A program made the position numbers and the translations under genes. From Chthoniobacterales bacterium (GTDB lineage: Bacteria > Verrucomicrobiota > Verrucomicrobiia > Chthoniobacterales > DASVRZ01), in contig JBBRFA010000003.1 in NCBI GenBank assembly GCA_038225185.1, positions 10,430 to 74,429 of the forward strand: a stretch of DNA of 64,000 bases, written 5' to 3'. This document shows positions 1 to 44,566 of this stretch, in pieces. The notes beneath the pieces are model-generated. The model was not told where the DNA came from, ran no database searches, and was given only the letters and a program-made list of their open reading frames with translations. Positions within the stretch are counted from its first letter, which is position 1. Every line of letters starts with the position of its first letter.

Positions 1-612
1 TTTGGCAACCCTCTCACCCCGCCCGGGATTGTCACCGAGTTCGGTGGAGCGATCTCAGTCTATACCGATACTAATGTAAATATCGGGCAGGCCCGAATCT
101 TCACCCTGCGCGGTGGTGACATCATCATGTGGTCTTCTAATGGTAATATCGCAGCGGGGACCGCCCCAAAGACAGTGGTTACCGCTCCACCCACACGGGT
201 CGTCTTTGATACGAACAGCGCCGACGTCCAAACCGATTTGGGCGGGTTGGCCACTGGCGGAGGTATCGGCGTGCTAGCCTCGGTTGAAGGGGTGCTTCCT
301 GGCGACGTCGATTTGATTGCGCCTTCTGGTTTCATAGATGCAGGCGACGCGGGTATTCGCACCACCGGAAATCTCAATATTGCTGCTGTGCAAGTTCTTA
401 ACGCTGACAACATCCAGTCTGGCGGCACTAGCACGGGCGTCCCTTCTGTGGTCGCGCCTTCCGTCAATCTCGGTGGCCTTACCGCTGCTGCATCTACTGC
501 CACCTCTTCTTCTGCCGCTGTTAGCGATGTCACCAAGACAAACCAAGAGCAAACCCAGCAGCAGGAGCTTCCTTCGATCATCATCGTCGAGGTCCTCGGT
601 TATGGAGGGTAG
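1..612 (+). CDS. C-terminal end of a large filamentous-haemagglutinin-family (FhaB-like) secreted repeat protein; 5' end outside window
   Basis: Frame 1 is open from base 1 to TAG 610-612. Motifs GDVDLIAPSGFIDAGDAGIRTTGNLNIAAVQVLNADNIQSGG and the terminal IIVEVLGYGG resemble the conserved C-terminal region of filamentous haemagglutinin family proteins. Confidence 0.6.
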   Translation, partial: FGNPLTPPGIVTEFGGAISVYTDTNVNIGQARIFTLRGGDIIMWSSNGNIAAGTAPKTVVTAPPTRVVFDTNSADVQTDLGGLATGGGIGVLASVEGVLPGDVDLIAPSGFIDAGDAGIRTTGNLNIAAVQVLNADNIQSGGTSTGVPSVVAPSVNLGGLTAAASTATSSSAAVSDVTKTNQEQTQQQELPSIIIVEVLGYGG

Positions 613-889: not shown

Positions 890-1807
890 ATGAAATTGAG
901 TCTCGTTCTACCCGCCTTTTTTATACCCTTTACCGTCCAAAGTGCCTGCCTCATTCCTGGCTTGCAATCCTCCAATTTTTGGGCAAATCCGGTATCGCAA
1001 GTAACCCATGAACCACCTTCCTCCGCAATTCAAATTCCTTCCTCGCCGGAGGAGAATTTTCAACTTGCTCGCAGGTATCTTGCCGGACAAGGTGTGCCCG
1101 TTGACGAGCGCAAAGCCTTCGCGTTGATGCAGTCTGCCGCTATGCATCAGCACCCCGAAGCCATCTCCAGCCTCGGTTTTTTTTATGCGCAAGGAATTAG
1201 TGTCGAAAAGGACCAGGTCGAGGCTATGAAGTATCTGGAAAAGGCTGCCCGATTAGGTGAGGCCAAAGCCCAACTTAATCTTGGTCTGCTCTTGCTCAAT
1301 CGCATCTCCCCCGAGCCAGATGTCGCTGCGGGCTTGCATTGGGTAAAACAGGCGGCGGACCAAGGCCTGGCCAACGCGATTTCCACCGAGGGAGCGATCT
1401 TCTTGCTCGGGCTCTACGGGCAGCCATCGGATTATGGACGAGCCTTTGAAAAACTTACTGCGGCTGCTGCAAAAGAGGACTCCAATGCCGCTTTTCTTTT
1501 GGGAGGTGCCTACGAAAAAGGTCTCGGTTGGAAGGCGGATGCGAAGCTTGCGGAACGTTGGTATCGGGAAGCAGCAAGGAAAGGACATCGCGGCGCGCAA
1601 AGTAAGCTGGCTCGAATATTGGATCCGCAATCACACGATCCGCAACGCCGCATCGAAGCTCTCTCTTGGCTTCTCCTCGCAGCCGAACAACGTGATCCCG
1701 AATCGGAACAACTGCTTACCGGAATTTTTTTCTCATTGGACAAAGTCGAATTGGTAAAGGCAAACGAAAAAGCTCGTCAAATGGCTGTCGCTCCGAAGAC
1801 TCTTTAG
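890..1807 (+). CDS. Secreted Sel1-like repeat (SLR) protein
   Basis: Several ~36-aa Sel1 units (KAFALMQSAAMHQHPEAISSLGFFYAQGISVEKDQVEAMKYLEKAARLGEAKAQLNLGLLL; AAFLLGGAYEKGLGWKADAKLAERWYREAARKGHRGAQ). ATG 890 gives a signal-peptide-like MKLSLVLPAFFIPFTVQSA; the ORF is open from 836, so the start is uncertain. Confidence 0.8.
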   Translation: MKLSLVLPAFFIPFTVQSACLIPGLQSSNFWANPVSQVTHEPPSSAIQIPSSPEENFQLARRYLAGQGVPVDERKAFALMQSAAMHQHPEAISSLGFFYAQGISVEKDQVEAMKYLEKAARLGEAKAQLNLGLLLLNRISPEPDVAAGLHWVKQAADQGLANAISTEGAIFLLGLYGQPSDYGRAFEKLTAAAAKEDSNAAFLLGGAYEKGLGWKADAKLAERWYREAARKGHRGAQSKLARILDPQSHDPQRRIEALSWLLLAAEQRDPESEQLLTGIFFSLDKVELVKANEKARQMAVAPKTL

Positions 1808-1813: not shown

Positions 1814-4108
1814 ATGGCACCCATCCGAAACCTATCAATCCCAACTCAATCGAAAAAGAAATCTATAACCTCTGCTCGTGACAACCAGGCGGGCGTATCC
1901 CTGACGTCACGGCGGTGGATGATTCTCCTCAGCCTTTTCCTGGTTTTCTTCCTCATTGGTGACGCCTACAATCGCTATCAATTCATCCATCTTTCCACCG
2001 CTGTATCCACGGCGGATCCCGCAGCCAGCGTAACTGGGGCAATGGCTTCTGGAAGCCAACTCCGCCAATTGATCCTTCCCCTCAGTTGTATCGACGGTAA
2101 ATGGTGGCTGATCCACACTGAAAAATTCCTCACCTCTCCCGTCTGGCGCATCCGGGAGAGCACGCAGGACAACGCTCCGGAAGGCCGCGAAGTTTATTGG
2201 AGTTCTGGCCCGATCTGGTTCCTGGGCGCAATCACCCGAGTGGTGCAGGCAATCACTGGTCAACCCCTTAACCAGGCCATTGAGACCGCCATTTTCTTCA
2301 TCGCCCCGCTATCTTTCGTGTTCATGGTCGCAGTTTTGCTCCCTGTCGCACTTCGCCAATTTGGCCGACTCGCCGCGTTCGGACAAATCACTTTTCTAAC
2401 GACCTCCCTCGGATTTTTTCAATACATTCGGGTTGGAGAAAATGATCACCACGGCTATGTCGCCTTTTTTTCTCTTTGCAGCGTCAGTGCCCTGGTCGCC
2501 GGAGTTCTGCGCTGGCGCGGGCTGTCAGAGTCGCCAACCCGCTTGGATTTCGGATCACAAACCGACCGATTCTGGTTCGCGCTTTCCGGGCTTTCGGGAG
2601 CTACGGCCCTGTGGGTTAGTTCAGCCACCCATATTCCCGTTCTCTTCGGCTGCGGCGTGGCCGGTCTCTTAATGGCCTGGCAGAGCCGTCGTCACGCCAC
2701 CGAACCTTTGCCGTGGCGGACATGGGGCTTATACGGCTGCGGAGGCAGTCTCGCTTTCTACTTGCTGGAATATTTTCCCGGTCACATGGGTTGGCGTCTC
2801 GAGGTCAATCACCCGTTTTGGGCCTTCGCCTGGCTGGGCGGGGGAGAAATTCTGCATCGAATTTCCCGCCAGTTTGCCACACCGCGCCCGCCCTGGCGCT
2901 GGAGCGACACGCTGCTCGTCGCCGCAGCTTTATTCGCCGCCGTTCTGCCCATCGCTGCCATTGTCCTCCGGTCAGAGCAGGTCTTCTGGGTCTCCGATAA
3001 ATTTCTCTTCCTGCTTCACGAAACTTACATCGACGAATTCAAATCCCTCCCCGCAACCCTCAAAGACCCGACTGGGCGCACCTTGGCGATCATCAATCTG
3101 TCGTGGCTTGTTGTCCTGCTGCTGGCCGCTGGCTTTTTCCTTATTCAGAAGCGCCTGTCCCTGATCCTGCGGAACGCCCTCGTTCTTTCCCTCGCTCCGG
3201 CCCTCGTCATGCAAATGCTTGCCTTCCATCAAATTCGCTGGGGCGGGATCGCCACCGCCCTCTGGAGTGTCGTTGTGCTTACCGTGCTTTTTATCGGGTC
3301 CAGCAAACGTTCCGGGTTGTTTGTGCCAAAATGGGCTTCCGTTGGGTTTTGCTCCCTCGGACTACTGCTGTGCCTCTTTCACCCGTTACTCACCTTCGTA
3401 AGCGCTGGCCTGATTCTAACCCAATCCGAAGAAGAAAAAAAAGTGACTCCGGGCGACATGGGGCCAGCGATCCTTGCCCGGGACGTCGCTCACCGCCTGG
3501 TCACCTACCAACCAGAGCGGCGCCCAGTGATTCTCTCCGGTCCCAGCGTTTCCACCGAATTGGCCTACTACGGCGGCTGCCGGATGATCGGCACTCTTTA
3601 TTGGGAAAACATGCCCGGGCTGAAAAAAGCTGCCCGCATGTTCTCCGCTGCCACTGATGCCGAGTTGTTTGGACTCCTACAAGCCGGGGCCGTCACCCAC
3701 ATCGTGGTTTTTTCGTGGGACGATTTTGCCGACCAATATTTGTCATTGCTTTCCAAAGCTGAAGGCCGCCCCAAACCGCTCACTTCCGCCCTCGCCGATA
3801 TCGTGCATGAGACACGGCCGCCTCCCCAGTGGCTGCGGCAGCTTCCCTACCGCATTCCCGCCGCCTTTGGCATGCCCGACGCTTGGGCGCACCTCTATGA
3901 GATTGTCCCCGAACAATCCAAAAACGACTGGCTCTTTCACCGGGGCATGGCTCTGGTCGAGGACGCCAAATACCGTCAATCCAAAGCCGTCTTCCAAGAG
4001 CTGGCCATCCTGGACCCGAACGATGCCCGGGCTCGCGACGCCCTTGTGGAACTGGAGGAAGTGATCAATCAACTCCCGGCTAATAAAATTCCACGCTCAT
4101 CGCCATGA
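1814..4108 (+). CDS. Polytopic membrane protein, paralog A (764 aa), possible GT-C/STT3-like glycosyltransferase with C-terminal TPR-like tail
   Basis: Long ORF with many hydrophobic segments. Shares blocks with the next gene (DNAPEGREVYWSSG, DHHGYV, YLLEYFPGHMGWRLEVNHP, GTLYWENMPGLKKAARMFSA). C-terminal AKYRQSKAVFQELAILDPNDARARDALVELEE is TPR-like. The functional call is inference only. Confidence 0.85.
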   Translation: MAPIRNLSIPTQSKKKSITSARDNQAGVSLTSRRWMILLSLFLVFFLIGDAYNRYQFIHLSTAVSTADPAASVTGAMASGSQLRQLILPLSCIDGKWWLIHTEKFLTSPVWRIRESTQDNAPEGREVYWSSGPIWFLGAITRVVQAITGQPLNQAIETAIFFIAPLSFVFMVAVLLPVALRQFGRLAAFGQITFLTTSLGFFQYIRVGENDHHGYVAFFSLCSVSALVAGVLRWRGLSESPTRLDFGSQTDRFWFALSGLSGATALWVSSATHIPVLFGCGVAGLLMAWQSRRHATEPLPWRTWGLYGCGGSLAFYLLEYFPGHMGWRLEVNHPFWAFAWLGGGEILHRISRQFATPRPPWRWSDTLLVAAALFAAVLPIAAIVLRSEQVFWVSDKFLFLLHETYIDEFKSLPATLKDPTGRTLAIINLSWLVVLLLAAGFFLIQKRLSLILRNALVLSLAPALVMQMLAFHQIRWGGIATALWSVVVLTVLFIGSSKRSGLFVPKWASVGFCSLGLLLCLFHPLLTFVSAGLILTQSEEEKKVTPGDMGPAILARDVAHRLVTYQPERRPVILSGPSVSTELAYYGGCRMIGTLYWENMPGLKKAARMFSAATDAELFGLLQAGAVTHIVVFSWDDFADQYLSLLSKAEGRPKPLTSALADIVHETRPPPQWLRQLPYRIPAAFGMPDAWAHLYEIVPEQSKNDWLFHRGMALVEDAKYRQSKAVFQELAILDPNDARARDALVELEEVINQLPANKIPRSSP

Positions 4109-6162
4109 CCAAGCCACCCGCCCGAGACCGCTTTTTTCTCAATCACCCAGCGGTCTTCCTCCTTGCGGTGCTTTTTGCCTGGGCCGTGCTCGGGGCTTCA
4201 ACGTGGGCGAAAATCAAACAAAATCACGGCGTCAGCAAAGTCGATCTCCAAGGTGCCGAACTGCCGCAAGTCGATTTCAATTCACCCACCGGCTACGCTC
4301 TCGGGCAGCGACGCCTTATTTTGCAGGATGTCGATTCCTGTCAATGGATCATGCACACCCAGCGCATGGTCGCGGAAGGCGGCTGGCGCGAGCGATTCGC
4401 CCCGGACGACAATGCCCCACAGGGCCGGGAAATCCACTGGAGCAGCGGTGTGATGTGGTGGTTGGCCGGGTTGGGTAGCCTCCATGCCCGGTTCCTGCAT
4501 CTCCCCGTGGGGGCGGGGATCGAGCAGGCGAGCCTCTGGTCGAACGTCCTTTTTCTCGGCCTCGCCCTCCTCCTTGTGCCCTGGGTGGTGCGCCGCGCTT
4601 TCGGCTGGCTGGCCTCCGCCCTTGGTGCCGTCGCCTTTGTTACCAGTTACTCCTTTGGATCCCAGTTTGCCTCTGGTTGCGTGGATCATCACGGCTGGGT
4701 CTCGCTTGCGGGGCTAATCTTCCTCCTCTTTCTCGCTGCCGGCGGTGGAGGTTGGGTAGCCGGGGACGGCACCGCGCCTTCCCCTGCCCAGGCCCGAAAA
4801 TGGTTTGCTGCCTCCGGGTTTTTTGCGGCGGTAGGGCTCTGGATTAGCGCCGCGACGATTATTCCATTTATCGTCGGCATGGGCCTCGCCGCGATTGTGA
4901 CAGCTTTTCTCCTCGCACCCGCACCCAAGCCTTCCGCCGAGCGGGTCGATCCCTCTCTTTGGCGGCTTTGGGGAAACACCGCTGCGCTCTGTTCCCTCGG
5001 CTTTTATCTGCTCGAATATTTTCCGGATCATTTCGGCTGGCGACTTGAGGTCAATCACCCCTGTTACGCCCTCGCTTTGTGGGGCGGCGGCGAATGGTTA
5101 AGCCGGGTCGTCGGCTGGCGGGCGGGCGGACCATTTTTCTCGGGTGCATCCGATCGTTGGCGAGCCCTGGCAGCCACCGTGGCAATGCTGCTGACCCCGC
5201 TCGCTTTGCTGGCCTTCAAAACCCAGGTCTTCCGGGTGTCCGATCCCTTTCTATGGCAGTTGCACCACGACTACATCTCCGAATTTCTCCCGTTAACCAT
5301 CAAATTTAGCCGTGAACCCTTTCTCTTGCTGGTTATGCTTCTCGGGGCTTTACCTTTGCTCATCTTCGCCGATGCCCGGCTTTTGCGCGGTGTGCCGCTG
5401 GCCATGGGACGGAAAGCAGGCCTCGCGCTCACCCTCGGCGGCGCGTTGCTTCCCTCGTTTCTCGGCCTTAGCCAGTCGCGCTGGTATAATGTTGCCAGCG
5501 GCCCCTGGCTTGCAGTGCTTATCGCCACCGTGGGGTGCTGCACGCTGCTCGCTCATACGGCCCAATACGATTGGTGGGAAAAAATGCTCGGCTTTCTCTT
5601 TGTCATCTTCGTCGTCTTTTACCTCCCGGTTTTTGTTTTTCTCGATGTGCGCGATACCATGCGCAAGCCACCAGATATCGGGATTGGCGGAGATAAAATG
5701 ATCCTCATCCGCGATCTTGCCTATCGCTTGCGACGGACGGAGCCGACCGTGGCGGCGCCCGATCAACCGCCCATTGTGGCCAGCGGCCCGACCAATACAA
5801 CCTGGCTGATGTATTTCGGCGGCTTGCGTGGCTTGGGAACGTTGTATTGGGAAAATCTGGAAGGGTTAAAACGCGCTGCTGAGCTGTTTTCCGCGCCGAC
5901 CAGCCGCGAAGGCGAACGTTTGTTGCGGGAAAATCACGTCTCCTACATCGTGATCACTTCGGGCGAGCCATTCGTTTTCGAATATCCACGGCTCTGGCGG
6001 CGACTTGCAGCCAAAGATCACCCGCAGGACACACTTGCCTACGGTCTGGCTTCTGGCAAAAATATCCCGCTTTGGGCTTCGCCATTGCCCTATCCGATTC
6101 CAAATCGTCAGAAAGAAGGCACGCTCTGGATGGCTCTCTACGACGTGCGGGAGGCACGTTAG
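4105..6162 (+). CDS. Polytopic membrane protein, paralog B (685 aa), possible GT-C/STT3-like glycosyltransferase
   Basis: ATGA start/stop overlap with paralog A. Conserved blocks DDNAPQGREIHWSSG, VDHHGWV, YLLEYFPDHFGWRLEVNHP, GTLYWENLEGLKRAAELFSA. Many hydrophobic segments. Confidence 0.85.
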   Translation: MTKPPARDRFFLNHPAVFLLAVLFAWAVLGASTWAKIKQNHGVSKVDLQGAELPQVDFNSPTGYALGQRRLILQDVDSCQWIMHTQRMVAEGGWRERFAPDDNAPQGREIHWSSGVMWWLAGLGSLHARFLHLPVGAGIEQASLWSNVLFLGLALLLVPWVVRRAFGWLASALGAVAFVTSYSFGSQFASGCVDHHGWVSLAGLIFLLFLAAGGGGWVAGDGTAPSPAQARKWFAASGFFAAVGLWISAATIIPFIVGMGLAAIVTAFLLAPAPKPSAERVDPSLWRLWGNTAALCSLGFYLLEYFPDHFGWRLEVNHPCYALALWGGGEWLSRVVGWRAGGPFFSGASDRWRALAATVAMLLTPLALLAFKTQVFRVSDPFLWQLHHDYISEFLPLTIKFSREPFLLLVMLLGALPLLIFADARLLRGVPLAMGRKAGLALTLGGALLPSFLGLSQSRWYNVASGPWLAVLIATVGCCTLLAHTAQYDWWEKMLGFLFVIFVVFYLPVFVFLDVRDTMRKPPDIGIGGDKMILIRDLAYRLRRTEPTVAAPDQPPIVASGPTNTTWLMYFGGLRGLGTLYWENLEGLKRAAELFSAPTSREGERLLRENHVSYIVITSGEPFVFEYPRLWRRLAAKDHPQDTLAYGLASGKNIPLWASPLPYPIPNRQKEGTLWMALYDVREAR

Positions 6163-6257
6163 CCTGGGAGTTTTTCGGGTAGAGGCGCGGCCCAAGACGT
6201 ATTGCCGAAGGTGCCTCGCCTTCGTTGTCTTTGGGTGGTGAGTGCCCATTAATGGGT

Positions 6258-6492: not shown

Positions 6493-7872
6493 TTAGAGGT
6501 CGGTGATGGTTGCGCCGTCGGCACCACGATCCACGCTCATCTCACCGAGGGTGAGACCGTTGCCGCCGATGTTGATCGGCAATTGCACCGCTGCGAAGAT
6601 GTTGTCGAAGAAGGTCGTCAACTCAGGACCCGTGGCACCAGTGGTGCCGGCGGATACCAAGTAGCCATACATGTTCTCAAAGCTCCAGAAGGTGTAAGCC
6701 CCGTTGGCCACCTTGGCTTTGTCAGCAACCGAGAGACCGCCGCCACCTGCGGTGACCGGGGTGATGGAGACACCGTTCCAGGCGATGACGCGAGGTTGGG
6801 TGGTGCCATTGCCGAGACCGTTGGTCGGGCCAGTGGTGTTACCGATGGCTGCTGCCGCGTCTTCCGTGGCAAGCACAGTAATCAGGGAAGCGTTTTCGTT
6901 GAGGATCAGGTTATTGGCTTCATCGCGAATCTCGACGTTACCGTTGAGAGCGTTCTGTTGGAACTGAGTGCGCAGGGTGCTGCCGCTGCTGTAGCCACCG
7001 TTACCGGGTTGGTCGGTGTTAAACAGGGTGGAGGCGTTGTTACCGTCTGCCGTTGGCCAGCGACGGAGCGAGGTAATTAGGTTGGAGCCGACCGTCAGGC
7101 GGTATTGTTCAATCAAGCGATCGTTGCTGGTAGGCCCTTGATCACCACTGTGGTTCTCCAAGAGATAAACTGAACGAGTGCCAGAGCCATCGTTCCGTCC
7201 CGTCCAATAGAGGCTGTTACCACTGTCAGCATCAGCCTGAAGCCCAGTGATGTTGCCCAAATTCAAGAAACCGTCTGCCTGCAGAGCACGCAGTTGGTTA
7301 TCGTTGATGTTGGTGATGTTGGCCGAGGATCCGCGGGCCAGCATCGGCACGAAGGTGAGGACGCCGACTTTACCACCAGTGAAGGTGAGGTTGCTTTGCG
7401 GCGTGACCAGAGTTTCCACATCGGAGAACGCGATCTTGGCCTGGTTCTCAGTCACGAACCCGGAATTGTAGTTCGAGGTGCCACCAGTGATGCTGTTACC
7501 GACGATGGTCAAGGCTGTGCCGGTGACCGAGGTGGGGATGTAAGATGCATTACCAGCCGTGTTGTTGAAGTTGGCGATCGCACGGATACCTTCCGTCGAA
7601 CCGCTCCAACTGGTGCGAATGGTGGTGGTGCCAGAGATACCAGGGAACGTGCCGGTAAAGATGTGCTGGTTGGCATTACCAAAGTTGCTACCCGTGTAGG
7701 CCACGGTGCAATTACTGGCATTGTTTGGCAGCACGCCAAAAGCGCGAGCAATGGCGGAGACGGCGGACGCGCGGAAAGCGGTCGCACCGGTGATTTTGAT
7801 GTCGGCAGCGCCGGAGGTGGCAACTGAAGTGACGACAGCTGTGGCTGCCAGGAGTATGGATTTAATTTTCAT
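6493..7872 (-). CDS. Secreted G/T/N/S-rich protein, possibly a PstS/PBP-like-2 periplasmic-binding fold with insertions
   Basis: Signal peptide MKIKSILLAATAVVTSVATSGAA. Blocks ITGATAFRA, SWSGSTEGIRAI, KIAFSDVE, WTGRNDGSGTR, YTFWSFENMY resemble phosphate-binding-protein-like domains. No transporter genes are adjacent. Confidence 0.7.
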   Translation of the reverse strand: MKIKSILLAATAVVTSVATSGAADIKITGATAFRASAVSAIARAFGVLPNNASNCTVAYTGSNFGNANQHIFTGTFPGISGTTTIRTSWSGSTEGIRAIANFNNTAGNASYIPTSVTGTALTIVGNSITGGTSNYNSGFVTENQAKIAFSDVETLVTPQSNLTFTGGKVGVLTFVPMLARGSSANITNINDNQLRALQADGFLNLGNITGLQADADSGNSLYWTGRNDGSGTRSVYLLENHSGDQGPTSNDRLIEQYRLTVGSNLITSLRRWPTADGNNASTLFNTDQPGNGGYSSGSTLRTQFQQNALNGNVEIRDEANNLILNENASLITVLATEDAAAAIGNTTGPTNGLGNGTTQPRVIAWNGVSITPVTAGGGGLSVADKAKVANGAYTFWSFENMYGYLVSAGTTGATGPELTTFFDNIFAAVQLPINIGGNGLTLGEMSVDRGADGATITDL

Positions 7873-7929
7873 GGATTTAATTTTCTACTTTATTTTCTAT
7901 TTTTATTTAACTGATTGGGTGGATTGAAT

Positions 7930-8823
7930 TTAAACTGACTTTTTGGCGCGACGACGGGTCGAACCAAAAAAACCTAATGCGCTAAGACCAAGTAACGCAA
8001 ATGTGGAAGGTTCTGGGACAGCAACGAAGGAGACATCGCCAGCCTGATTGATGGTGATCGAGCCGAGATAGTCGTAGGCTTGGACAGTATCGAAATCGGG
8101 AGTGTTGGTTGCGTTGACAAAGCGGGCTTGACGATAGAGATCGATTACGCCTTCGACTGTGCCAGCGGCTCCGAACGTGCCGAAGGAACCAGCTCCAAAG
8201 TTAAACTGGACGCCTGTGGTTTGACCACTGAAGGCGGTAGCCTGAACTCCTGCGTTGACTTGGTTAAAATCTTCCCAGGTATTCGCGGTCTGCGCACCGG
8301 CATAGATTCCGCTTACCTCGCGCGCATCGAATGCCGCTGAAAACTGCCGGACGAACGAAGCAGAAGTGGAAGCACTTCCGGTCGGATTCGAATTGCGAGC
8401 TCCCACGCTTCCAACTCCCACGCGACGTTCCGTGATGTAGATCGTCTGGTTGGGATCTTGCGCACCTATTATACCAGTAAAACCGGCGGTATTGCTGTTA
8501 TTTTGACCGGCAACGCCACGGTTACCGGCAGCACCAAAATAAAGATCAGTATTGTCAAACCAGTTCGCACCACCGAGCGCGATCAGTTGAGTGCTGATGT
8601 TGCCGATGTTGATGACGTTGGTTGCATTACGAGGTGCACCCCCGTCGCGAAACCGGGTAATAGTCGATCCAAGGTTCACCTCGAGCGAGAGGTTGTTGGT
8701 CGGGTTGACTTGGAAGCCGAGGATCAAGTCCTCGTCGTTGTAAGTGGCGTCGAACTGAGCGTTCGCCATGGGGACGAACGTCGCAGCAGCGACGGCACTC
8801 AAGATATATTGATTGAGTTTCAT
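7930..8823 (-). CDS. PEP-CTERM sorting-domain secreted protein
   Basis: N-terminal signal peptide (MKLNQYILSAVAAATFVPMANA) and a C-terminal VPEPSTFALLGLSALGFFGSTRRRAKK (PEP motif, TM helix, basic tail). Confidence 0.85.
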   Translation of the reverse strand: MKLNQYILSAVAAATFVPMANAQFDATYNDEDLILGFQVNPTNNLSLEVNLGSTITRFRDGGAPRNATNVINIGNISTQLIALGGANWFDNTDLYFGAAGNRGVAGQNNSNTAGFTGIIGAQDPNQTIYITERRVGVGSVGARNSNPTGSASTSASFVRQFSAAFDAREVSGIYAGAQTANTWEDFNQVNAGVQATAFSGQTTGVQFNFGAGSFGTFGAAGTVEGVIDLYRQARFVNATNTPDFDTVQAYDYLGSITINQAGDVSFVAVPEPSTFALLGLSALGFFGSTRRRAKKSV

Positions 8824-9169
8824 TGTTTTGTGTGGTTTATTTTAATTTGAACCCTTCTCCGATGCACAACGACGGATGTCACGCTCACCGGTTCTTGATT
8901 CGTCATTACTTTAAGAATTTCCTGCGAACCGACAAACTTTCTATTGTAACAATTGTGTGACGGAAATCGATCTTGCAATGCCTTGTGCCGCAACATCTTA
9001 CACAAGGGCAGGTCGAAATTTTCTCTTAAAAGGCCACTTTAACGCTCTCCCGCCGCCTTTTCGTAACCCAATCGACACATTCAACTCTGCAAATTTATGC
9101 TTTTTTCCCGGCTTTTATCCGGTTTCCACCTGTTTTGACTCGTTTTAACCCGTTTTCACCCTGCGACCG

Positions 9170-10096
9170 TTACTGCGGGCGCGGGCGGAAGAGGCTGGCG
9201 TGGGCATTTTCGGTGATCGCGCTGATGGCGGGATGCTTGATTTTTCGTTCCGCAGTGATCGCAAAAAATTCTCCCCGACATTCTTTCACCTCGCCCACCG
9301 GACGCAGCCCGTATTGGCGGCGGGCTTCCTCCAGCACCATGGTATGCACCGGCACCACCGCCAGGCCGCTCATGGCGACAGCTTTCATCAGGGCCGCATC
9401 CTCAAACTCCGCCAAAATCTGCGGATGAATGCCCTGCTGATCATACCATTTCTCCAAAGCAAGACGGGTGGCCGTATTTTCGGTCGGCAAAAAAGCGGGC
9501 TGACCATTGAGCGAGGCCGGAAAATTATCCTGCAAACGCGCCGCCAGACTGGCCGGTGCGCAAAAAGTGAGCGTGCTGCCCCCCAGCAAATGCGAATAGG
9601 TTTTAACCAGGAGCGAACTGGGAGCGGCTTCATCGGTGATGATGATGTCGAGCCGATGGGTTGCAAGCTGGAGGAGCAGGCCATCCACTTTGCCCTCGCG
9701 ACAGACGAGATGAATCGGTTGCTCCATGGAAAAAACCGGTTTGAGAATTTCGTGCGCAACGATTTTTGGCACCGAATCGGCCACGCCGACCTGGAGCTTG
9801 AGCGGACGCTGACCGGGACGTTGTCGCACCGCGTTGAGCAATTCGCGTCCCGAAGAAAATATATCGTCCGCATAACCGACGACTAACTGGCCCATTTGAG
9901 TGAGAACGAGCCGGCGACCTTTGCGTTGAAAAAGTTTTTCGCCCAAGGCATCCTCCAGTTGATGAAGTTGGGCGCTGATCGATGGCTGCGAGACGTGCAG
10001 CAACTCGGAGGCGCGACGCAGGCTCCCTTCACGTGCCACCACCCAGAAGTAGCGCAGATGATGGAAATTCAGCCATTCCAAGCTCGGAGTATCCAT
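9170..10096 (-). CDS. LysR-family transcriptional regulator (NhaR-like N-terminus)
   Basis: N-terminal wHTH LNFHHLRYFWVVAREGSLRRASELLHVSQPSISAQLHQLEDALGEKLFQRKGRRLVLTQMG followed by a ~200-aa LysR substrate-binding region. Divergent from the next gene. Confidence 0.85.
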   Translation of the reverse strand: MDTPSLEWLNFHHLRYFWVVAREGSLRRASELLHVSQPSISAQLHQLEDALGEKLFQRKGRRLVLTQMGQLVVGYADDIFSSGRELLNAVRQRPGQRPLKLQVGVADSVPKIVAHEILKPVFSMEQPIHLVCREGKVDGLLLQLATHRLDIIITDEAAPSSLLVKTYSHLLGGSTLTFCAPASLAARLQDNFPASLNGQPAFLPTENTATRLALEKWYDQQGIHPQILAEFEDAALMKAVAMSGLAVVPVHTMVLEEARRQYGLRPVGEVKECRGEFFAITAERKIKHPAISAITENAHASLFRPRPQ

Positions 10097-22584: not shown

Positions 22585-22656
22585 AACGTTGCTTTGAGAA
22601 TAATCTTCCTTCGTTAAAAAACAATCTCAAGTCTCTCCATCTTCATTAAAAAATCA

Positions 22657-23718
22657 ATGTCCAACACCCTTTTTGTCCTGATTCTTGCCGGGGGAAGCGG
22701 AGAACGCTTCTGGCCTCTCAGCCGACGTGCCGCTCCCAAGCAATTGCTCAACCTTTTTTCCGAACACACACTGCTCGAAAACACGGTCGCACGTCTCAAC
22801 GGTCTCGTGCCCAGCGAGAATATTCTCATCCTCACCAATCAGGAGCAGGAAGCCGCCGTCCGACGCATCATCACCACTCTCCCCCACGAAAACATCATCG
22901 CCGAACCCGATAAACGCGACACCGCCGCCGCCATCGCCCTCGGCGTGGGCCTCATCGCCCGACGCAACCGCACCGCCACCATGGTCGTGCTCCCAGCCGA
23001 CCATCTCATCCGCGATGCTGCCGCCTTTCAAAACGATCTCCGCCTCGCCGCCGATGCCGCCGAGAAATCGGAAGCCCTCGTTACCATCGGCATCAAACCC
23101 ACCTGGGCCTGCCCCGGCTTCGGTTACATCGAACAAGGCGCCGCCGCTTTTTCCGATACCCAACCCGTCTTCGATGTGGTGCGCTTCCGCGAAAAACCCG
23201 CGCCCGATCTCGCCGAAACCTTTCTCCGCCAGGGAAATTTTCGTTGGAATGCCGGCATGTTTATCTGGACTATTCCCGCCATCCTCCGCGAATTCGAGCG
23301 CAGCACCCCGCACCTCTGCGAGTTCATCATTCGCATGCAAAAATGCCCGGAAATCGGCCCTTTTCTCGCCCGCGAATTCCCCGTCCTGCCCAAAATCTCC
23401 ATCGATTATGCCATTCTCGAAAAAGCGCATCGCGTTCTCGTCGTCGAAGCTTCTTTCGATTGGGACGACATCGGCGGCTGGCTCGCCGTGGCCAATTATC
23501 TCCCCAACGACGCCCAGGGCAACCGCGCGAACACCGCCACCACCATCTCGCAGGCGACTAACAACATTGTTTATTCCAAAACCAAAAAGCACGTCGCGCT
23601 GCTCGGCGTTTCCGATCTCGTGATCGTGGAAACGGACGACGCTCTCCTGATTGTTTGCCGGCACGAAGCCGAAAACATCAAACAACTCATCCAAAAAATC
23701 CCTCCCGGGTTGCAATGA
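22657..23718 (+). CDS. Mannose-1-phosphate guanylyltransferase (nucleotidyltransferase domain only)
   Basis: LILAGGSGERFWPLSRRAAPKQLL N-terminus, DKRDTAAAI, PADHLI, and GYIE blocks. The antisense 353-aa ORF is treated as a shadow. Confidence 0.88.
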   Translation: MSNTLFVLILAGGSGERFWPLSRRAAPKQLLNLFSEHTLLENTVARLNGLVPSENILILTNQEQEAAVRRIITTLPHENIIAEPDKRDTAAAIALGVGLIARRNRTATMVVLPADHLIRDAAAFQNDLRLAADAAEKSEALVTIGIKPTWACPGFGYIEQGAAAFSDTQPVFDVVRFREKPAPDLAETFLRQGNFRWNAGMFIWTIPAILREFERSTPHLCEFIIRMQKCPEIGPFLAREFPVLPKISIDYAILEKAHRVLVVEASFDWDDIGGWLAVANYLPNDAQGNRANTATTISQATNNIVYSKTKKHVALLGVSDLVIVETDDALLIVCRHEAENIKQLIQKIPPGLQ

Positions 23719-35216: not shown

Positions 35217-35571
35217 AAAAAACTCCGATACCATCCGGGTTGCCACCTGTGTCTGGTGGATTTTGGCATTCAGCATCATCGGCGGGTTGGGTCTCAGCTA
35301 TGTCTCGATTAAAAACCAGGCAATCGCTTATGGAGATGATCGGCGTAAACTGGAAGCTCAACTTAACGAAACCAGCAAACTCAATCGCGCTCTCGAAAAT
35401 CAAATCAACGGTCTCGTTTCCTGGAACTCGCTCCAACGTCAGCTCCAATCGGGCTTCATCCAACTGGTGGAAATCGATCCCACCCAAATCGTTCGCATCA
35501 ATACCAATCCCACCGAGATCGGCTACGTCTCCAATGCGAACACACCCGAGCGCATTCTGGCCCAAAAATGA
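35200..35571 (+). CDS. ftsL: FtsL-like bitopic cell-division protein
   Basis: Position between rsmH and ftsI. One TM (VWWILAFSIIGGLGLSYV) followed by a coiled-coil-like RRKLEAQLNETSKLNRALENQING. Confidence 0.6.
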   Translation: MSRNRRKNSDTIRVATCVWWILAFSIIGGLGLSYVSIKNQAIAYGDDRRKLEAQLNETSKLNRALENQINGLVSWNSLQRQLQSGFIQLVEIDPTQIVRINTNPTEIGYVSNANTPERILAQK

Positions 35572-37376
35572 AGCCAATCCAAAAAAGAGCGATCCTCGTT
35601 TGCATTCTTCTGGTCACCGTCCTGAGTGTCTATTCCGCGCGCTTGATTCAAATTCAGGTCGTCGATCATGAAATCTATGCCGCACGCGCCAATGCCAAGC
35701 ACATCGTAAAAAAACCTGTCTATGCCCAACGCGGGCGCATCATCGATATCAATCACGAGATTCTGGCCAGTAACACAGCGGTAAAAACCGTCTATGCCGA
35801 TGCCTCGCACATCCTGCTCACCGAGACGGGTAAAATCGACGACGCGGACCGCAAAAAAAATCGTGTCTCAAAAATTTCAGAGATTGTTGGCAGGCACCTG
35901 GGAATTCCAATTGAGGAAATCGAAAAAAAGATTCTCACCGAACGTCGCTACATCGTCCTTAAACATGGAGTCGATGAACTTGTCGCACACGCTTTGCAGG
36001 GCGAATTACGCGAGAAGGAATTGCGCGGCATTTATTTCAACGAGGATTTCCGCCGCATCTATCCCAATGGCGACATGCTCTGCCACGTTCTGGGTTGGCT
36101 GGATCACGAAAAAAACGGCCTTGCCGGCATCGAAAAAAGCATGGATGAATTTCTCCGCCAGCGCGATGGCTATCGCTTCACCGAGCGTGATCGCACCGGC
36201 CGGGAGATCGTGGTCTATCGCGGCTATGAGCGTCCCGCCCAGGAAGGATTGACTGTGCAGACTACCGTCAACCTCGCAATGCAGGCAGTCGTTGAGGAGG
36301 AATTAAAAGCTGCCTGCGAAAAATTCAAGCCCGAAGGCGCCACCATCATCATGATGAACCCGCACACCGGCGCCATCATGGCCATGGCATCCTGGCCCGT
36401 TTTTGATAATAACGATGCCAACAATGCGCCATCCGAAGTCACCAGAAACCATGCCGTGCTCGATATGTTGGAACCGGGTTCCACCTTTAAAATCGTCGCC
36501 GTGGGTGCCGCCATCGAAGAGGGGCTGGTGACTGACGAAACAAAAATCTTTTGTGAAGGGGGTCGTTTTTTCTATGGCGGAAGAATTCTCAGGGACCATC
36601 ATCCCTACGGGTCTCTTTCGGTGCACGAAATCCTCGTTAAATCGAGCAATATCGGAGTTGCCAAACTAGCTTTGCAAATGGGCGAACAACGTTTCCACGA
36701 TTATGTGCGTCGTTTTGGCTTCGGAGACCGCACTGGGATCGATCTGCCAGGGGAAATACCAGGGCGCGTAAATGCACCCGGTGGCGCGGATAAACTCGCC
36801 ATCACCCGTATCCCCATGGGGCAGGCCATCGGGGTCACTCCCATCCAGCTTTGCACCTCCATGTCTGTCATCGCAAACGGTGGCAACCTCATGATGCCAC
36901 AGGTGGTGGCCAGCATCATTGCCAGTGACGGACGTATTGTTAGCAAATATAAGCCAGTATTGGTTAGAAATGTTATCTCCAGGGAGACAGCGTTGAAAGT
37001 TACCGCCGCGCTCAAGGATGTGGTGGGTAAAAAAGGCACCGCGCCCCTCGCCATGGTGCCGGGATTCGCAGTCGCAGGCAAGACGGGCACCGCTCAGAAA
37101 GCAGGCGCCAGGGGCGGTTACATGGCTGAAAAATATATCGTTAGCTTTTGTGGTTTTTTGCCGGCCGACGATCCCGCTTTTGTCATCTATGTGCTCATCG
37201 ACGATGCCAAGCCCGGTGCCATTCCCAACTACGGTGGAACCATCGCCGCCCCCATCTTCGCCAATGTCGCACGCAAAGCGGCTCGCATCCTCGATCTAAA
37301 GCCAGACCCCGCATTGCTGGATCCCATGGAGGAAGGCCTCAAACAAGCTTCCAACACCAAACCGATTCGAGATTGA
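35568..37376 (+). CDS. ftsI: Peptidoglycan D,D-transpeptidase (class B PBP, FtsI)
   Basis: N-terminal TM, PBP dimerisation region, and transpeptidase motifs STFK (EPGSTFKIV), SSN (KSSNIG), and KTGT (AGKTGTAQ). Confidence 0.92.
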   Translation: MKPIQKRAILVCILLVTVLSVYSARLIQIQVVDHEIYAARANAKHIVKKPVYAQRGRIIDINHEILASNTAVKTVYADASHILLTETGKIDDADRKKNRVSKISEIVGRHLGIPIEEIEKKILTERRYIVLKHGVDELVAHALQGELREKELRGIYFNEDFRRIYPNGDMLCHVLGWLDHEKNGLAGIEKSMDEFLRQRDGYRFTERDRTGREIVVYRGYERPAQEGLTVQTTVNLAMQAVVEEELKAACEKFKPEGATIIMMNPHTGAIMAMASWPVFDNNDANNAPSEVTRNHAVLDMLEPGSTFKIVAVGAAIEEGLVTDETKIFCEGGRFFYGGRILRDHHPYGSLSVHEILVKSSNIGVAKLALQMGEQRFHDYVRRFGFGDRTGIDLPGEIPGRVNAPGGADKLAITRIPMGQAIGVTPIQLCTSMSVIANGGNLMMPQVVASIIASDGRIVSKYKPVLVRNVISRETALKVTAALKDVVGKKGTAPLAMVPGFAVAGKTGTAQKAGARGGYMAEKYIVSFCGFLPADDPAFVIYVLIDDAKPGAIPNYGGTIAAPIFANVARKAARILDLKPDPALLDPMEEGLKQASNTKPIRD

Positions 37377-37383
37377 TTTTTCC

Positions 37384-38865
37384 ATGTTGTTAAAAACATT
37401 ACTCACCAAAACCGCCGTGGAGGAAGTGCGCGGATCGACCGAGCGGGAAATCACCGGCATCGTTTACGATTCGCGTCGCGTCGTGGCCGGCAGTCTCTTT
37501 TTTGCCGTGCGCGGTGAGAAACTGGTCGGCACCGAATTTATTTATCAGGCAATAGAACGGGGAGCCGAGGCCGTGATCTCCGACGTGGACCTGCCAGCCC
37601 AGCGCATCACCGTGGTGCGGGTAGCCGATACCCGCAGAGCCTTGGCCGATCTCTCCTGCGCTTTTTACAAGCATCCTGCGAGTCGCCTCAAACTGGTCGG
37701 AATAACAGGCACCAATGGCAAAACCACCACCGCCTATCTCGTCAAGCATCTGCTCGAAGAGGCCAGTTTGCGCACAGGACTTCTGGGAACGGTTCGCTAT
37801 GAGATAGGAGATCGCATTCTCCCGGCCGCGCGCACCACCCCCGAAGCACCCGAGATTAACGATCTACTTCAGCAAACCCTCAATGCTGGAGGCAAGGCGG
37901 CAGTCATGGAAGTATCCTCCCACGCGCTCAGCCAGGCTCGTGTGCGTGGGTTGGAATTCGATGTCGCTGTCTTCACTAATCTTACCCAGGATCATCTCGA
38001 CTATCATCGCACCCTCCAATCCTACTTCGAGGCCAAGGCGCTGCTCTTTTTGCAGCTCACCGAGCAATCCAGGAAAAAAGGCGTGGCAGTCATTAATCTC
38101 GACCAATCGCATGGCGAACAATTGATCGCGCGCTTCGGTCAGGAAATAAAAGTCATCACCTACGGTTTTGGGGTCGGAGCCGACTTTCGTGCCTCCAATC
38201 TCAAGACCGAAAGCGGCCTCACCACTTTTCAACTCGACGCAGAAGGAAAAAGCTATCTCGTCAGACTTCCCTTGATCGGTCGCTTCAATATTTCCAACGC
38301 CCTGGCTGCCCTTGCCGCCGCAAGCGGCTTGGGAATTCCCTTGCGCAATTCCGTCAAAGCCCTCGCCTCAGCACCACAAGTGCCCGGCAGATTGCAGGCT
38401 GTCCCCATCAAACGCCAATACCAAATCTTCGTCGATTACGCTCACACCGACGATGCTTTATTAAACGTTCTCCGCACCCTGCGCGAACTTTCCCCCAACC
38501 GTCTCATCGTGGTTTTTGGCTGTGGCGGTGATCGGGACCGCGCCAAACGCCCCAAAATGGGGGCCGTGGCCAGTGAATACGCCGACTATTCCATCGTCAC
38601 ATCTGATAATCCTCGCAAAGAAAACCCCGAAACCATCATCGCCGAAATCACCCAAGCCATGCACCCTGGAAAATATGAAGCCGTCATGGATCGGGCCGAG
38701 GCCATCTACCGGGCTGTTTCTCTGGCACAACCCAGAGACATTATCCTCATCGCTGGCAAAGGGCACGAAACCAATCAGGAATTTGCCGATCATATCATCC
38801 CTTTCGATGACGTCGAAGTCGTCACCAACGCCGTCGGCTTGCAACCTGTCAAAATGGCCATCTAA
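37384..38865 (+). CDS. murE: UDP-N-acetylmuramoyl-L-alanyl-D-glutamate--2,6-diaminopimelate ligase
   Basis: GITGTNGKTTT P-loop, the Mur ligase middle and C-terminal domains, and a DNPR motif (TSDNPRKE) typical of mDAP-adding MurE. Confidence 0.92.
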   Translation: MLLKTLLTKTAVEEVRGSTEREITGIVYDSRRVVAGSLFFAVRGEKLVGTEFIYQAIERGAEAVISDVDLPAQRITVVRVADTRRALADLSCAFYKHPASRLKLVGITGTNGKTTTAYLVKHLLEEASLRTGLLGTVRYEIGDRILPAARTTPEAPEINDLLQQTLNAGGKAAVMEVSSHALSQARVRGLEFDVAVFTNLTQDHLDYHRTLQSYFEAKALLFLQLTEQSRKKGVAVINLDQSHGEQLIARFGQEIKVITYGFGVGADFRASNLKTESGLTTFQLDAEGKSYLVRLPLIGRFNISNALAALAAASGLGIPLRNSVKALASAPQVPGRLQAVPIKRQYQIFVDYAHTDDALLNVLRTLRELSPNRLIVVFGCGGDRDRAKRPKMGAVASEYADYSIVTSDNPRKENPETIIAEITQAMHPGKYEAVMDRAEAIYRAVSLAQPRDIILIAGKGHETNQEFADHIIPFDDVEVVTNAVGLQPVKMAI

Positions 38866-40239
38866 ATGAATTCTCTTTCTGTTAACCAAATCGCTCAAAT
38901 GGCTGGGGGAACCCTCGCAGCCATTTCCCGCGATGCTATCCTGGAACGCGTGGTTACGGATAGCAGACAGGTCAAACCCGGCGATTGTTTCGTCGCTTTA
39001 CGAGGCGAAAAATTCGACGCGCATCAATTTCTTCCCGAGGTAATTGCCCGGGGGGCCACGGCCGTATTGGTCGATCAACCTTACACCTCCACGGTGCCTG
39101 TGATCAAAGTTTCGGATACCCTGGTTGGACTGCAATCTCTAGCAAAAAATTATCGATCCACCCTCAAAATCCAGGTCATCGGAATAACCGGGAGCAACGG
39201 CAAGACTAGCACCAAAGATCTCGCCGCAACCGTCTTTGGCCAGAAACATGCAGTCACCAAGACGGCTGGAAATCTTAACAATCACATCGGTCTTCCGCTT
39301 TCCGTGTTAGCCATTGATGACAGCCACCAGTTTGCCATCCTTGAGATGGGGATGAATCATCCGGGGGAAATAGCGCCACTCGCCGCCATCTCCCAGGCAA
39401 ACGCCGCGATCATCACCAATATCGGAGTCGCGCACATCGAGTTCATGCGCAGCCAGAACGCCATCGCCCGGGAAAAAGGCATGCTGGCAGAAAGCGTTCC
39501 CGCAAATGGCTGCGTCATTCTAAACGCCAACGATCTATTTTCTGCCGGTATCGCAAAGCGTTGCCAGGGAAAAATCCTTCTTGCCGGGATCGACCAGGGC
39601 GACATCATGGCGACACGGCTTCTGGCCGAACCAGACGGCACTCATTTTCTGGTTACTTATCAAAACGAAACCCTCGAAGCCTGGCTCCCGGTCTCGGGAC
39701 GGCACATGGTTGCCAACGCCCTTCTTGCCGTCGCCGCAGCGGTTTTCTTTGGCATTCCTTTTCAGGAGGCTGTCGCCTCGCTCGGGCATGTTCGACTTAC
39801 AGGTGGCCGGTTGGAAACCAGGAAACTAGGCGATTACACCATCATCGACGACACCTATAACGCCAATCCGGATTCCATGGTGGCCGCCTTGCTAACCTTG
39901 CGGGAGATGCCCGTCGCTGGAAGGCGCATCGCAGTGCTCGGAGCCATGGGTGAACTCGGATTTTACGCAGAAGAAGGCCATCGCAAAGTGGGCGAGGCAG
40001 CCTCTGGACTCAATCTCCTGATCACTGTCGGCACCACAGCCCGTTGGATCGCGGAAGCAGCCTCCCGGCACGATGCCCTCGAAATCATCCAAGTCTCCGA
40101 CACTCAGGAAGCAGCGCAGAAACTGGCGCATGTTCTCCAATCTGGCGATACCATTCTTTGCAAAGGCAGTCGTTCGGCACGCATGGAAAAAGTGCTCAGC
40201 GAACTCGAAAACCTGATCCATCCCTCCACCGTCCACTAA
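38866..40239 (+). CDS. murF: UDP-N-acetylmuramoyl-tripeptide--D-alanyl-D-alanine ligase
   Basis: GITGSNGKTSTKD P-loop, LEMGMNHPGEI, and DDTYNANPDSM motifs. Confidence 0.92.
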   Translation: MNSLSVNQIAQMAGGTLAAISRDAILERVVTDSRQVKPGDCFVALRGEKFDAHQFLPEVIARGATAVLVDQPYTSTVPVIKVSDTLVGLQSLAKNYRSTLKIQVIGITGSNGKTSTKDLAATVFGQKHAVTKTAGNLNNHIGLPLSVLAIDDSHQFAILEMGMNHPGEIAPLAAISQANAAIITNIGVAHIEFMRSQNAIAREKGMLAESVPANGCVILNANDLFSAGIAKRCQGKILLAGIDQGDIMATRLLAEPDGTHFLVTYQNETLEAWLPVSGRHMVANALLAVAAAVFFGIPFQEAVASLGHVRLTGGRLETRKLGDYTIIDDTYNANPDSMVAALLTLREMPVAGRRIAVLGAMGELGFYAEEGHRKVGEAASGLNLLITVGTTARWIAEAASRHDALEIIQVSDTQEAAQKLAHVLQSGDTILCKGSRSARMEKVLSELENLIHPSTVH

Positions 40240-41348: not shown

Positions 41349-41350
41349 AA

Positions 41351-43410: not shown

Positions 43411-43417
43411 ACCCTTC

Positions 43418-44563: not shown

Positions 44564-44566
44564 ATT

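Follow-up and report, generated by a model that had tools for sequence, protein, structure and literature searches.

In a 64,000-nt stretch of the genome of a Chthoniobacterales bacterium (contig JBBRFA010000003.1, positions 10,430 to 74,429; "the window" hereafter means this whole stretch), two adjacent genes, here called A and B, encode large polytopic membrane proteins that we assign to an unannotated bacterial branch of the STT3/AglB/PglB superfamily of oligosaccharyltransferases (OSTs), which have the GT-C glycosyltransferase fold. An ATGA at 4105-4108, read in the sequence itself, forms the overlap common to both genes, and the ATG of gene A at 1814 follows the TAG stop codon of a gene for a Sel1-repeat protein (1805-1807) with a spacing of 6 nt. 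Further upstream lies the 3' end of tpsA, a giant gene of the FhaB family (Table 1). In BLASTP, A and B share 34% identity over 639 columns (E=6e-77), and judged by this similarity, which is far above chance, they are paralogues. An original prediction, made from the letters of the DNA alone, had described the overlapping tandem of paralogous genes, the narrow gap to the Sel1 gene and the FhaB-like 3' end, all of which are borne out by the open reading frames (ORFs), BLASTP and Pfam.

Table 1. Features of the A/B locus and positions of the mapped motifs in the window (EL, external loop; TM, transmembrane segment)
Feature	Position	Strand	Remarks
Gene A, A-type STT3/AglB-like GT-C protein	1814..4108	+	764 aa; ORF list
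Gene B, B-type STT3/AglB-like GT-C paralogue without TPR	4105..6162	+	685 aa; ORF list
CIDGKWW, A residues 92-98	2087..2107	+	D94 equivalent to the catalytic Asp, first DXD, EL1; hhalign against OST 'efDP'
QDNAPEGREVYWSSG, A residues 118-132 (block i)	2165..2209	+	DNAPEGREVHW corresponds to the STT3/AglB 'D..wYPxGR' block of EL1; B residues 101-115
GENDHHGYVAF, A residues 208-218 (block ii)	2435..2467	+	D211-H212-H213, second DXD metal site, EL2; hhalign against 'Gf.D.E'
YLLEYFPGHMGWRLEVNHP, A residues 316-334 (block iii)	2759..2815	+	Family-specific, near-invariant, predicted periplasmic EL4; B residues 301-319 (Y301-P319)
TYIDEF, A residues 404-409	3023..3040	+	Y405-I406-D407-E408 corresponds to TIXE/SVSE, EL5; hhalign against 'SVaE'
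HQIRW, A residues 472-476	3227..3241	+	R475 equivalent to the lipid-phosphate-site Arg of TM11; hhalign against 's.vRl'
ILSGPSVSTELAYYGG, A residues 573-588	3530..3577	+	WWDYG position held by S-G-P-x-x-S-T; B SGPTNTT 560-566
GTLYWEN, A residues 593-599	3590..3610	+	Family-invariant, at the OST DGGK/DNXTZNX[T/S] position; B 578-584
C-terminal TPR of A, residues 704-749	3923..4060	+	About 1.5 repeats; profile matches to consensus TPR proteins
3' end of giant FhaB-family tpsA	1..612	+	Last 200 codons; DUF3739, Ser/Thr/Ala-rich tract, C-terminal ...IIIVEVLGYGG
Sel1-repeat protein gene	890..1807	+	ATG 890 preferred; longest ORF from TTG 836
Terminator-like hairpin 3' of gene B	6206..6224	+	Consensus scan; counts not above shuffled sequence
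Stronger terminator-like hairpin opposing that of gene B	6468-6435	-	Consensus scan; counts not above shuffled sequence
Secreted paralogues of 459 aa and 297 aa whose family is unannotated	6493-7872 and 7930-8823	-	297-aa protein ends in a PEP-CTERM sorting signal

A Pfam scan matched neither A nor B, and a single curated sequence model matched the two proteins at all, namely the NCBIfam model of archaeal STT3, TIGR04154, which covered residues 122-478 of A (E=8.4e-11, 41 bits at a cut-off of 450) and was found in B at E=1.5e-3 (17 bits, same cut-off); both proteins stay below the curated-family thresholds for STT3, AglB and PglB. When 58 homologues were scanned individually, TIGR04154 was matched by 37 (E<=0.01) and Pfam STT3 (PF02516) by 11 (best 1.5e-9), always sub-threshold, while no other glycosyltransferase family, Pfam DPY19 included, turned up in these scans. 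HMMER searches of PDB sequences, run with single sequences and with profiles, yielded only TPR matches with the full family alignment and nothing with a TPR-free profile, so that the kinship to solved OSTs becomes visible only by comparing folds and by comparing profiles with profiles.

Both comparisons gave a clear answer. AlphaFold2 (AF2) models built from family alignments (pLDDT 89.5 and pTM 0.90 for A, 90.2 and 0.93 for B) were run against the PDB with Foldseek, and for either model the best match was Archaeoglobus AglB (7e9s; E=6e-11 for A and 1e-11 for B), followed by human and yeast STT3, DPY19 and Campylobacter PglB, with a probability of 1.00 and TM-scores of about 0.45-0.61. ArnT, AftA and ALG12 were weaker by orders of magnitude with both models. 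The C-terminal domain separately matched the AglB globular domains 3vu0 and 3vgp; the models thus combine a GT-C fold of 13 transmembrane segments (TMs) with an OST-type C-terminal globular domain. As a reference for profile comparison, we collected metagenomic loci encoding WWDYG[YH]W, which gave 71 full-length OSTs, 60 of which were aligned. Against these 60, hhalign reported a probability of 99.3% for a family profile of 14 sequences (E=2e-19, 604 columns) and of 98.3% for one of 58 sequences (E=1.5e-14, 592 columns), with an identical motif register in the two runs and an alignment over nearly the whole length of the family. The STT3/PglB/AglB-like layout that the original prediction had read into the two proteins is therefore corroborated by TIGR04154, the Foldseek results and hhalign, and we consider the homology of A and B to the OST superfamily solid.

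The topology agrees with this assignment. Across 58 sequences, lysine and arginine together reach a density of 0.15-0.25 in loops predicted to be cytoplasmic, compared with 0.00-0.07 in EL2, EL3 and EL4, the short loops of the periplasmic side. Because this charge bias fits the topology of OSTs, all the conserved blocks are placed on the periplasmic side. Helices occupy residues 703-753 at the end of the A model, where the TPR lies; many homologues have a longer C-terminal TPR and B has none, and Pfam matched TPR in up to 30 of the 58 members. The start of gene A differs between public calls, at 729 aa for NCBI (Met36, nt 1919) and 764 aa for Logan; the 35 additional N-terminal residues of the 764-aa form are basic and would be cytoplasmic.

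To read the register residue by residue, motif definitions and residue numbers of Archaeoglobus AglB (AfAglB) were taken from the paper on its ternary complex (PMC8342417), and the conservation of each mapped position was counted over 329 distinct family members. In AfAglB, Asp47 is part of the first DXD motif, and the second consists of Asp161-His162-His163; the metal is coordinated by Asp47, Asp161 and His163, Glu360 is part of TIXE, and the residues close to the phosphate include His81 and Arg426 (PMC8342417). The T-I-x-E strand binds the peptide backbone, and the Ser/Thr pocket of OSTs is built by WWDYG plus DK/MI (PMC8342417).

On the catalytic side, the family is remarkably close to this scheme. 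The four blocks that had been noticed in both copies (i to iv in Table 1, with block iv as a whole spanning residues 573-634 of A, nt 3530-3715, and 557-619 of B) are indeed there, 96-100% conserved among the 329 homologues. The Asp of the first DXD corresponds to D94 (D77 in B), present in 319 of the 329 members (97%), with W98 in 318. The original prediction had instead sought the acidic residue of the first loop within block i, at D119, but hhalign in its global and local modes and the spacing of AfAglB agree on D94. The second DXD is D211-H212-H213, identical to Asp161-His162-His163 of AfAglB and conserved at 96, 97 and 96% (D194-H195-H196 of B, in GCVDHHGWVSL, residues 191-201); here the proposed D-x-H motif proved right, down to an exact Asp-His-His match (PMC8342417). 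The catalytic Glu is represented by E408 in the Y-I-D-E of EL5 (E408 98%, I406 90%; Y390-I391-S392-E393 in B), and not by the RLEVNHP of block iii, as had been supposed, which lies on EL4 and has no OST counterpart. Conservation of the Asp, Asp-His-His and Glu in homologues, which the original prediction had left to be checked, is therefore high throughout. R475, in place of the Arg of TM11, is kept by 327 of the 329 (99%; R459 in B). From D94 over position 128 to D211, E408 and R475, the distances in A are 34, 117, 197 and 67 residues, and in AfAglB, from D47 over H81 to D161, E360 and R426, they are 34, 114, 199 and 66. By its spacing, position 128 (nt 2195-2197) would match His81, which in AfAglB is close to the lipid-phosphate site; it is His in 312 of the 329 members, B among them, and Tyr in A. 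Since Tyr replaces the common His, A may handle its donor in another way or have degenerated in part.

Such a degree of conservation bears on the idea that A, B and their relatives are catalytically dead, OST-fold scaffolds or chaperones of the inner membrane that assist the export of giant TpsA proteins. The coupling to tpsA in an operon, the loss of the sequon-binding motifs (see below) and the protein-binding modules at hand, i.e. the TPR and the neighbouring Sel1 protein, would suit this role. Yet D94, D211, H212, H213, E408 and R475 are preserved at 96-99% over 329 divergent members, and since this would not be expected of the metal and catalytic residues of a pseudo-enzyme, we regard the dead scaffold as scarcely credible.

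On the acceptor side, the picture is the reverse. At the WWDYG position, hhalign pairs 'vv.sWWDYGYWI' of the OSTs with 'vVLsgP.tST.L' of the family, whose P577 is 97% conserved, and none of the 329 members has a Trp in the aligned columns. The absence of the canonical WWDYG Asp had thus been recognised correctly. Block iv, which had been put at this position as an aromatic-Gly block, does reach it with its S-G-P-x-x-S-T, whereas GTLYWEN aligns with DGGK/DNXT instead. That OST motif is itself missing from the family; Y596, W597, E598 and N599 of GTLYWEN are conserved at 98-100%. Reading YWEN as a shifted WWD motif was ruled out, as it aligns 17 residues downstream. The DK/MI segment of the OSTs ('gD..K..w...I') is a gap against the family, and no D-x-x-K or M-x-x-I is conserved at residues 634-646; the C-terminal strand of A ('...v.if.V.p') again aligns with OST 'V.Iyev'. 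To this comes the EL4 block, LLEYFPxHxGWRLEVNHP, in which E319, Y320, P322, R328, E330, N332, H333 and P334 are conserved at 96-100% and for which hhalign found no conserved partner in OSTs. By alignment, then, the family shows the OST catalytic centre and the backbone-binding strand, without the elements that read the +2 Ser/Thr, and with two invariant motifs of its own.

Were A and B ordinary N-OSTs that act on N-x-S/T sequons in the manner of PglB or AglB, the complete OST architecture and the retained catalytic triad would be well accounted for. The columns of WWDYG without a single Trp (0/329) and the gap in place of DK/MI argue against it, as does the composition of the TpsA proteins linked to the family, in which N-x-S/T is not enriched (0.69 observed and 0.72 expected per 100 aa). 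We therefore consider canonical sequon glycosylation very improbable.

Among characterised proteins, AfAglB-L (7e9s/3waj/5gmy; TIGR04154) resembles A and B most, being the best fold match with its 13 TMs and C-terminal globular domain and sharing the EL1 Asp, the Asp-His-His of the second DXD, the T-I-x-E Glu and the TM11 Arg at near-identical spacing. AglB belongs to CAZy family GT66. Identity in the structural alignment is about 13%. Unlike AglB, A and B are bacterial (Verrucomicrobiota), lack WWDYG, DK/MI and DGGK, carry an additional 55-residue insertion in EL1 before D94, and possess the invariant EL4 and GTLYWEN motifs, with a C-terminal TPR in many members of the family. Campylobacter lari PglB (3rce/5ogl/6gxc) and eukaryotic STT3 (6s7t, 8agc, 6ezn) share the fold and the catalytic layout, PglB being a weaker match (E about 1e-6) than AglB or STT3; the 'D..wYPxGR' block of STT3 and AglB has its equivalent in DNAPEGREV of A. 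In contrast to PglB and STT3, A and B are devoid of the Ser/Thr pocket, and their sequences give no evidence of N-x-S/T or D/E-x-N-x-S/T recognition. The genomic setting differs as well, as pglB is part of the pgl glycan-assembly cluster and A and B belong with a tpsA operon.

Three further systems are instructive. The tryptophan C-mannosyltransferase DPY19 (7zlg/7zlh/7zli; PMC10154233) likewise has an STT3-like GT-C fold without WWDYG (TM-score 0.52-0.60) and constitutes a precedent for an OST-related enzyme with changed acceptor chemistry and a polyprenyl-monophosphate monosaccharide donor. It has a luminal 'dome', its catalytic Glu71 on EL1 and no metal-coordinating residues in the active site (PMC10154233), whereas the A/B family retains the complete OST metal site and is thus not of the DPY19 kind. 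HMW1C is a soluble, cytoplasmic enzyme of family GT41 that has a GT-B fold and uses nucleotide sugars. It is comparable in its setting, as the Haemophilus influenzae hmw1ABC locus also combines a dedicated glycosyltransferase gene with that of a giant TpsA adhesin (PMC2877744, PMC3983070), making HMW1C a glycosyltransferase 'third partner' of a two-partner secretion (TPS) adhesin (PMC3983070). HMW1C modifies N-x-S/T before export, while A and B, as polytopic membrane proteins with a GT-C fold, have a predicted periplasmic active site; the resemblance to HMW1C is one of analogy and not of homology. TPRs are also carried by protein O-mannosyltransferases of the GT-C class, TMTC1-4 among them, in which C-terminal TPR repeats come after the membrane domain as in the A/B family and whose targets are large adhesion or receptor proteins. 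TMEM260 (PMC10214176) is another enzyme of this kind. TMTC and TMEM260 represent another GT-C branch, though, with neither a sequence match nor a top fold match to A and B, whose catalytic layout is OST-like.

The family is large. Searching 5.8 billion proteins returned 113 homologues, which, where named at all, are called 'hypothetical protein' or 'TPR repeat protein', and when 1.84 billion cluster representatives were searched with a profile, 2,030 proteins were found at E<=1e-3, 871 of them at E<=1e-30. This amounts to ~2,000 clusters at 50% identity, mostly from Verrucomicrobiota and without a Pfam or NCBIfam assignment. Relatives are encoded by 421 genomic stretches (one genome per species), and the best 79 of these (labelled by L-numbers), whose neighbouring genes were clustered together with those of the window, served for all neighbourhood counts. 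Nearly all 79 come from Verrucomicrobiota, i.e. Chthoniobacterales/Terrimicrobiaceae, Opitutaceae and some Akkermansia-labelled metagenome-assembled genomes; a few bins carry Pirellulaceae or Eisenbacteria labels. A-type and B-type proteins are two old subfamilies. A-type members have about 730-780 aa and a short TPR, B-type members usually ~900 aa and a long TPR that the B protein of the window lacks. Tandem copies occur in only two other loci of the 79 (L070 and L072), and tandem duplication was rejected as a general trait. One A-type and one B-type gene within ~6 kb of each other are found in the window as well as in L001, L013, L029 and L038, where they lie 3-4 kb apart on opposite strands, which indicates that the A/B pairing predates the tandem arrangement of the window. 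The family is homologous to STT3, AglB and PglB and yet lacks three defining motifs and stays below every curated threshold, forming a large unannotated clade with a new genomic association.

This association is with TpsA. The commonest neighbour of the STT3-like genes is a giant FhaB-like tpsA gene (34 loci). Upstream sequence of 1.5 kb or more is available for 66 loci; tpsA is directly upstream and co-oriented in 28 of them, which cover nearly the entire closest clade (L001-L036), and 17 of these 28 have -50 to +13 nt between the tpsA stop and the STT3-like ORF, often with overlapping stop and start codons. According to precomputed annotations, the upstream genes, e.g. in L200 and L202, encode 3,895-3,960 aa with a TPS domain (PF05860) and DUF3739 (PF12545); they are bona fide TpsA exoproteins. 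In the window, where the N-terminus of TpsA lies beyond the edge, Pfam likewise detected DUF3739 at 127-609 (E=9.6e-32). The C-termini of the linked TpsA proteins are conserved in 34 loci as a Ser/Thr/Ala-rich tract followed by PSxIxVEVLGYGG and usually an acidic tail, and may contain a processing, retention or modification signal. These conserved C-termini occur in L001-L036, L046, L068 and L078, and the protein of the window stops at ...VEVLGYGG.

The Sel1 gene of the window (Pfam PF08238, four repeats, E=7e-29, 99.6 bits with a cut-off of 30.7) more likely starts at ATG 890 than at TTG 836, because the resulting N-terminus, MKLSLVLPAFFIPFTVQSA followed by C, resembles a signal peptide. The order tpsA-sel1-STT3-like recurs in L003 and L007, and Sel1-repeat proteins are encoded within five genes of the STT3-like gene, usually just downstream, in 26 of the 79 loci. 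The FhaB-like and Sel1 neighbourhood on which the original prediction had drawn is hence conserved in related genomes, which supports its view of GT-C proteins in a module tied to a surface protein. In view of the terminator-like hairpins that face each other just 3' of B, sel1, A and B are taken as one transcription unit, which likely ends at the hairpin of 6206-6224. Some loci contain a candidate for donor synthesis as well: 7-8 related loci, e.g. L047 (5916-6671) and L202 (18215-18925), have a gene for a small GT2 glycosyltransferase (~240-250 aa) close to the STT3-like one, with polyprenyl-phosphate-sugar synthases as the best NCBIfam matches of this GT2 (PgfS, AglJ, Dol-P-hexose transferase, ArnC, PpgS).

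Downstream of B and on the other strand, the 459-aa and 297-aa secreted proteins belong to a family without a sequence match in Pfam, NCBIfam or the PDB; a phosphate-binding-protein-like fold, considered for the 459-aa neighbour from its sequence, found no support in these databases. That these paralogues and PEP-CTERM proteins are the acceptors, tpsA adjacency reflecting only a shared island of surface-protein genes, is a second way to read the neighbourhood. Members of this family are encoded no more than five genes away from the STT3-like gene in 30 of the 79 loci, PEP-CTERM proteins are also found in L200 and L202, and the best curated model of A and B, TIGR04154, is that of the archaeosortase-associated AglB subfamily, an analogy drawn from the model name only; exosortase is the bacterial counterpart of archaeosortase. 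The genes in question, however, usually sit on the opposite strand at positions +2 to +5, compared with the directly upstream, co-oriented and nearly gapless tpsA, and the TIGR04154 match, far sub-threshold as it is, may merely reflect that this is the longest AglB model. We think of PEP-CTERM acceptors as rather improbable.

In L200, a polytopic membrane protein of 1,046 aa with C-terminal TPR repeats (6768-9908) is encoded between tpsA and the STT3-like gene; it was rejected as a family member, and Pfam matched nothing in its membrane domain. Neighbours of 479 aa (12 loci) and of 694 aa with TPR (Opitutaceae loci) were not accepted as GT-C proteins either (hhalign <=32%, no Pfam or NCBIfam match except TPR). 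Elsewhere in the window, two ORFs of 353 aa occupy near-identical coordinates on both strands (22654..23715 on the minus and 22657..23718 on the plus strand), and ~13 co-oriented, tightly packed plus-strand ORFs fill 35568-53656.

The explanation that we favour as a whole is that A and B are transferases of the OST branch with a non-canonical acceptor, the A-type enzyme acting on the adjacent TpsA; we put its probability at about 0.5. According to this proposal, A and B would act as divalent-metal-dependent transferases through the Asp-His-His site, D94 and E408, and would draw on a polyprenyl-phosphate carrier at the periplasmic face for the sugar or glycan to be transferred, with R475 at the phosphate site. 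The GT2 neighbour in some loci gives a weak hint that the donor could be a monophosphate-linked monosaccharide, by analogy with the monophosphate carrier of AfAglB or with DPY19. The acceptor polypeptide would be held in extended form along the Y-I-x-E strand, and the acceptor signal would be something other than canonical N-x-S/T; a new kind of acceptor site would follow from the replacement of the N-x-S/T-reading pocket, which the EL4 motif and GTLYWEN may have substituted. Going by synteny, the acceptor of the A-type enzyme would be the TpsA encoded immediately upstream. TpsA proteins cross the periplasm unfolded (type Vb secretion), and this is the state that OST-type enzymes prefer. The TPR of the enzyme and the secreted Sel1 protein could serve as substrate-holding adaptors, and B might be the second enzyme of the locus, with another site or sugar specificity, or a partner subunit; GT-C enzymes that work as a pair are known from yeast, in Pmt1-Pmt2. 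In its most specific form, the proposal describes an unrecognised class of bacterial protein glycosyltransferases derived from AglB/STT3-type OSTs, in which the A/B pair would modify a new type of site on TpsA in the periplasm while TPR and Sel1 hold the substrate; candidate sites would be a non-canonical Asn context or Ser/Thr within the C-terminal Ser/Thr/Ala-rich tract of TpsA. This version we offer as a tentative and rather doubtful one.

Alternatively, the acceptor need not be a protein. An STT3-like GT-C enzyme could transfer to a glycan or a lipid, such as a cell-wall polymer, a lipid-linked intermediate, an exopolysaccharide or a capsular polysaccharide, comparable to ArnT, EmbC and AftA, which have the GT-C fold too. 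Non-protein acceptors are used by many GT-C families, AftA and ArnT appear lower in the Foldseek lists, the sequon pocket is lost, and the distant members from Opitutaceae are encoded among membrane and TPR proteins rather than beside tpsA. It is at odds with this, however, that the peptide-backbone T-I-x-E strand is kept (I406 90%, E408 98%), that the closest similarity is to the protein-modifying AglB, STT3, DPY19 and PglB, that TPR domains are present, which are typical of GT-C enzymes with protein substrates, and that the closest clade is tightly coupled to tpsA, often through overlapping codons. A non-protein acceptor thus appears unlikely to us, if not negligibly so.

Several observations weigh against the proposal that A and B glycosylate TpsA at non-canonical sites. 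The scores that curated OST models give fall far short of the threshold (41 instead of 450 bits), Pfam matches neither protein, and HMMER profiles do not reach a solved OST among PDB sequences. Since the distant Opitutaceae members are not adjacent to tpsA, the link to TpsA is limited to a subclade, and in the window itself the 277 nt between tpsA and the sel1-A-B unit (613-889, from the tpsA stop to the Sel1 start) weaken the case for co-transcription. The 64-kb window contains no gene for a polyprenyl-phosphate-sugar synthase and no homologue of the GT2 found in other loci. In the linked TpsA proteins, not only is N-x-S/T not enriched, but no acceptor motif was found. A has Tyr at position 128, possibly a phosphate-site residue, where 95% of the members have His. 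Finally, activity, donor and acceptor are inferred for every member of the family, and the mapped residues would cluster in three dimensions by homology only. What we infer about the function of A and B is nonetheless well motivated.

To our knowledge, PglB of Campylobacterota and of some Desulfobacterota is essentially the only bacterial OST of the STT3 type to have been characterised. Full-text searches aimed at the present family or its context, covering OST- or STT3-like proteins of Verrucomicrobia and Planctomycetes, WWDYG-less GT-C enzymes, and GT-C enzymes together with filamentous haemagglutinin, yielded no description of it; the 'new glycosyltransferase family' in PMC10584680 resembles YfhO and is a different one. 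A and B stand for a separate bacterial branch that is closer to AglB than to PglB. If they turned out to be inactive or directed at polysaccharides, the finding would be confined to the annotation of a divergent GT-C family.

Bacterial OSTs of the PglB type are the workhorses of bacterial glyco-engineering. As the catalytic machinery is kept and the sequon pocket exchanged, the family may be viewed as a natural experiment on how OSTs choose their acceptors, possibly with a new specificity for engineering, and the operon coupling to tpsA provides a concrete substrate hypothesis. If the latter is true, A and B would extend the idea of a 'third-partner glycosyltransferase' from the cytoplasmic HMW1C to a periplasmic, lipid-carrier-dependent route; in the most specific form of the proposal, substrates of type Vb secretion would for the first time have a periplasmic, lipid-carrier-dependent glycosylation system of their own.

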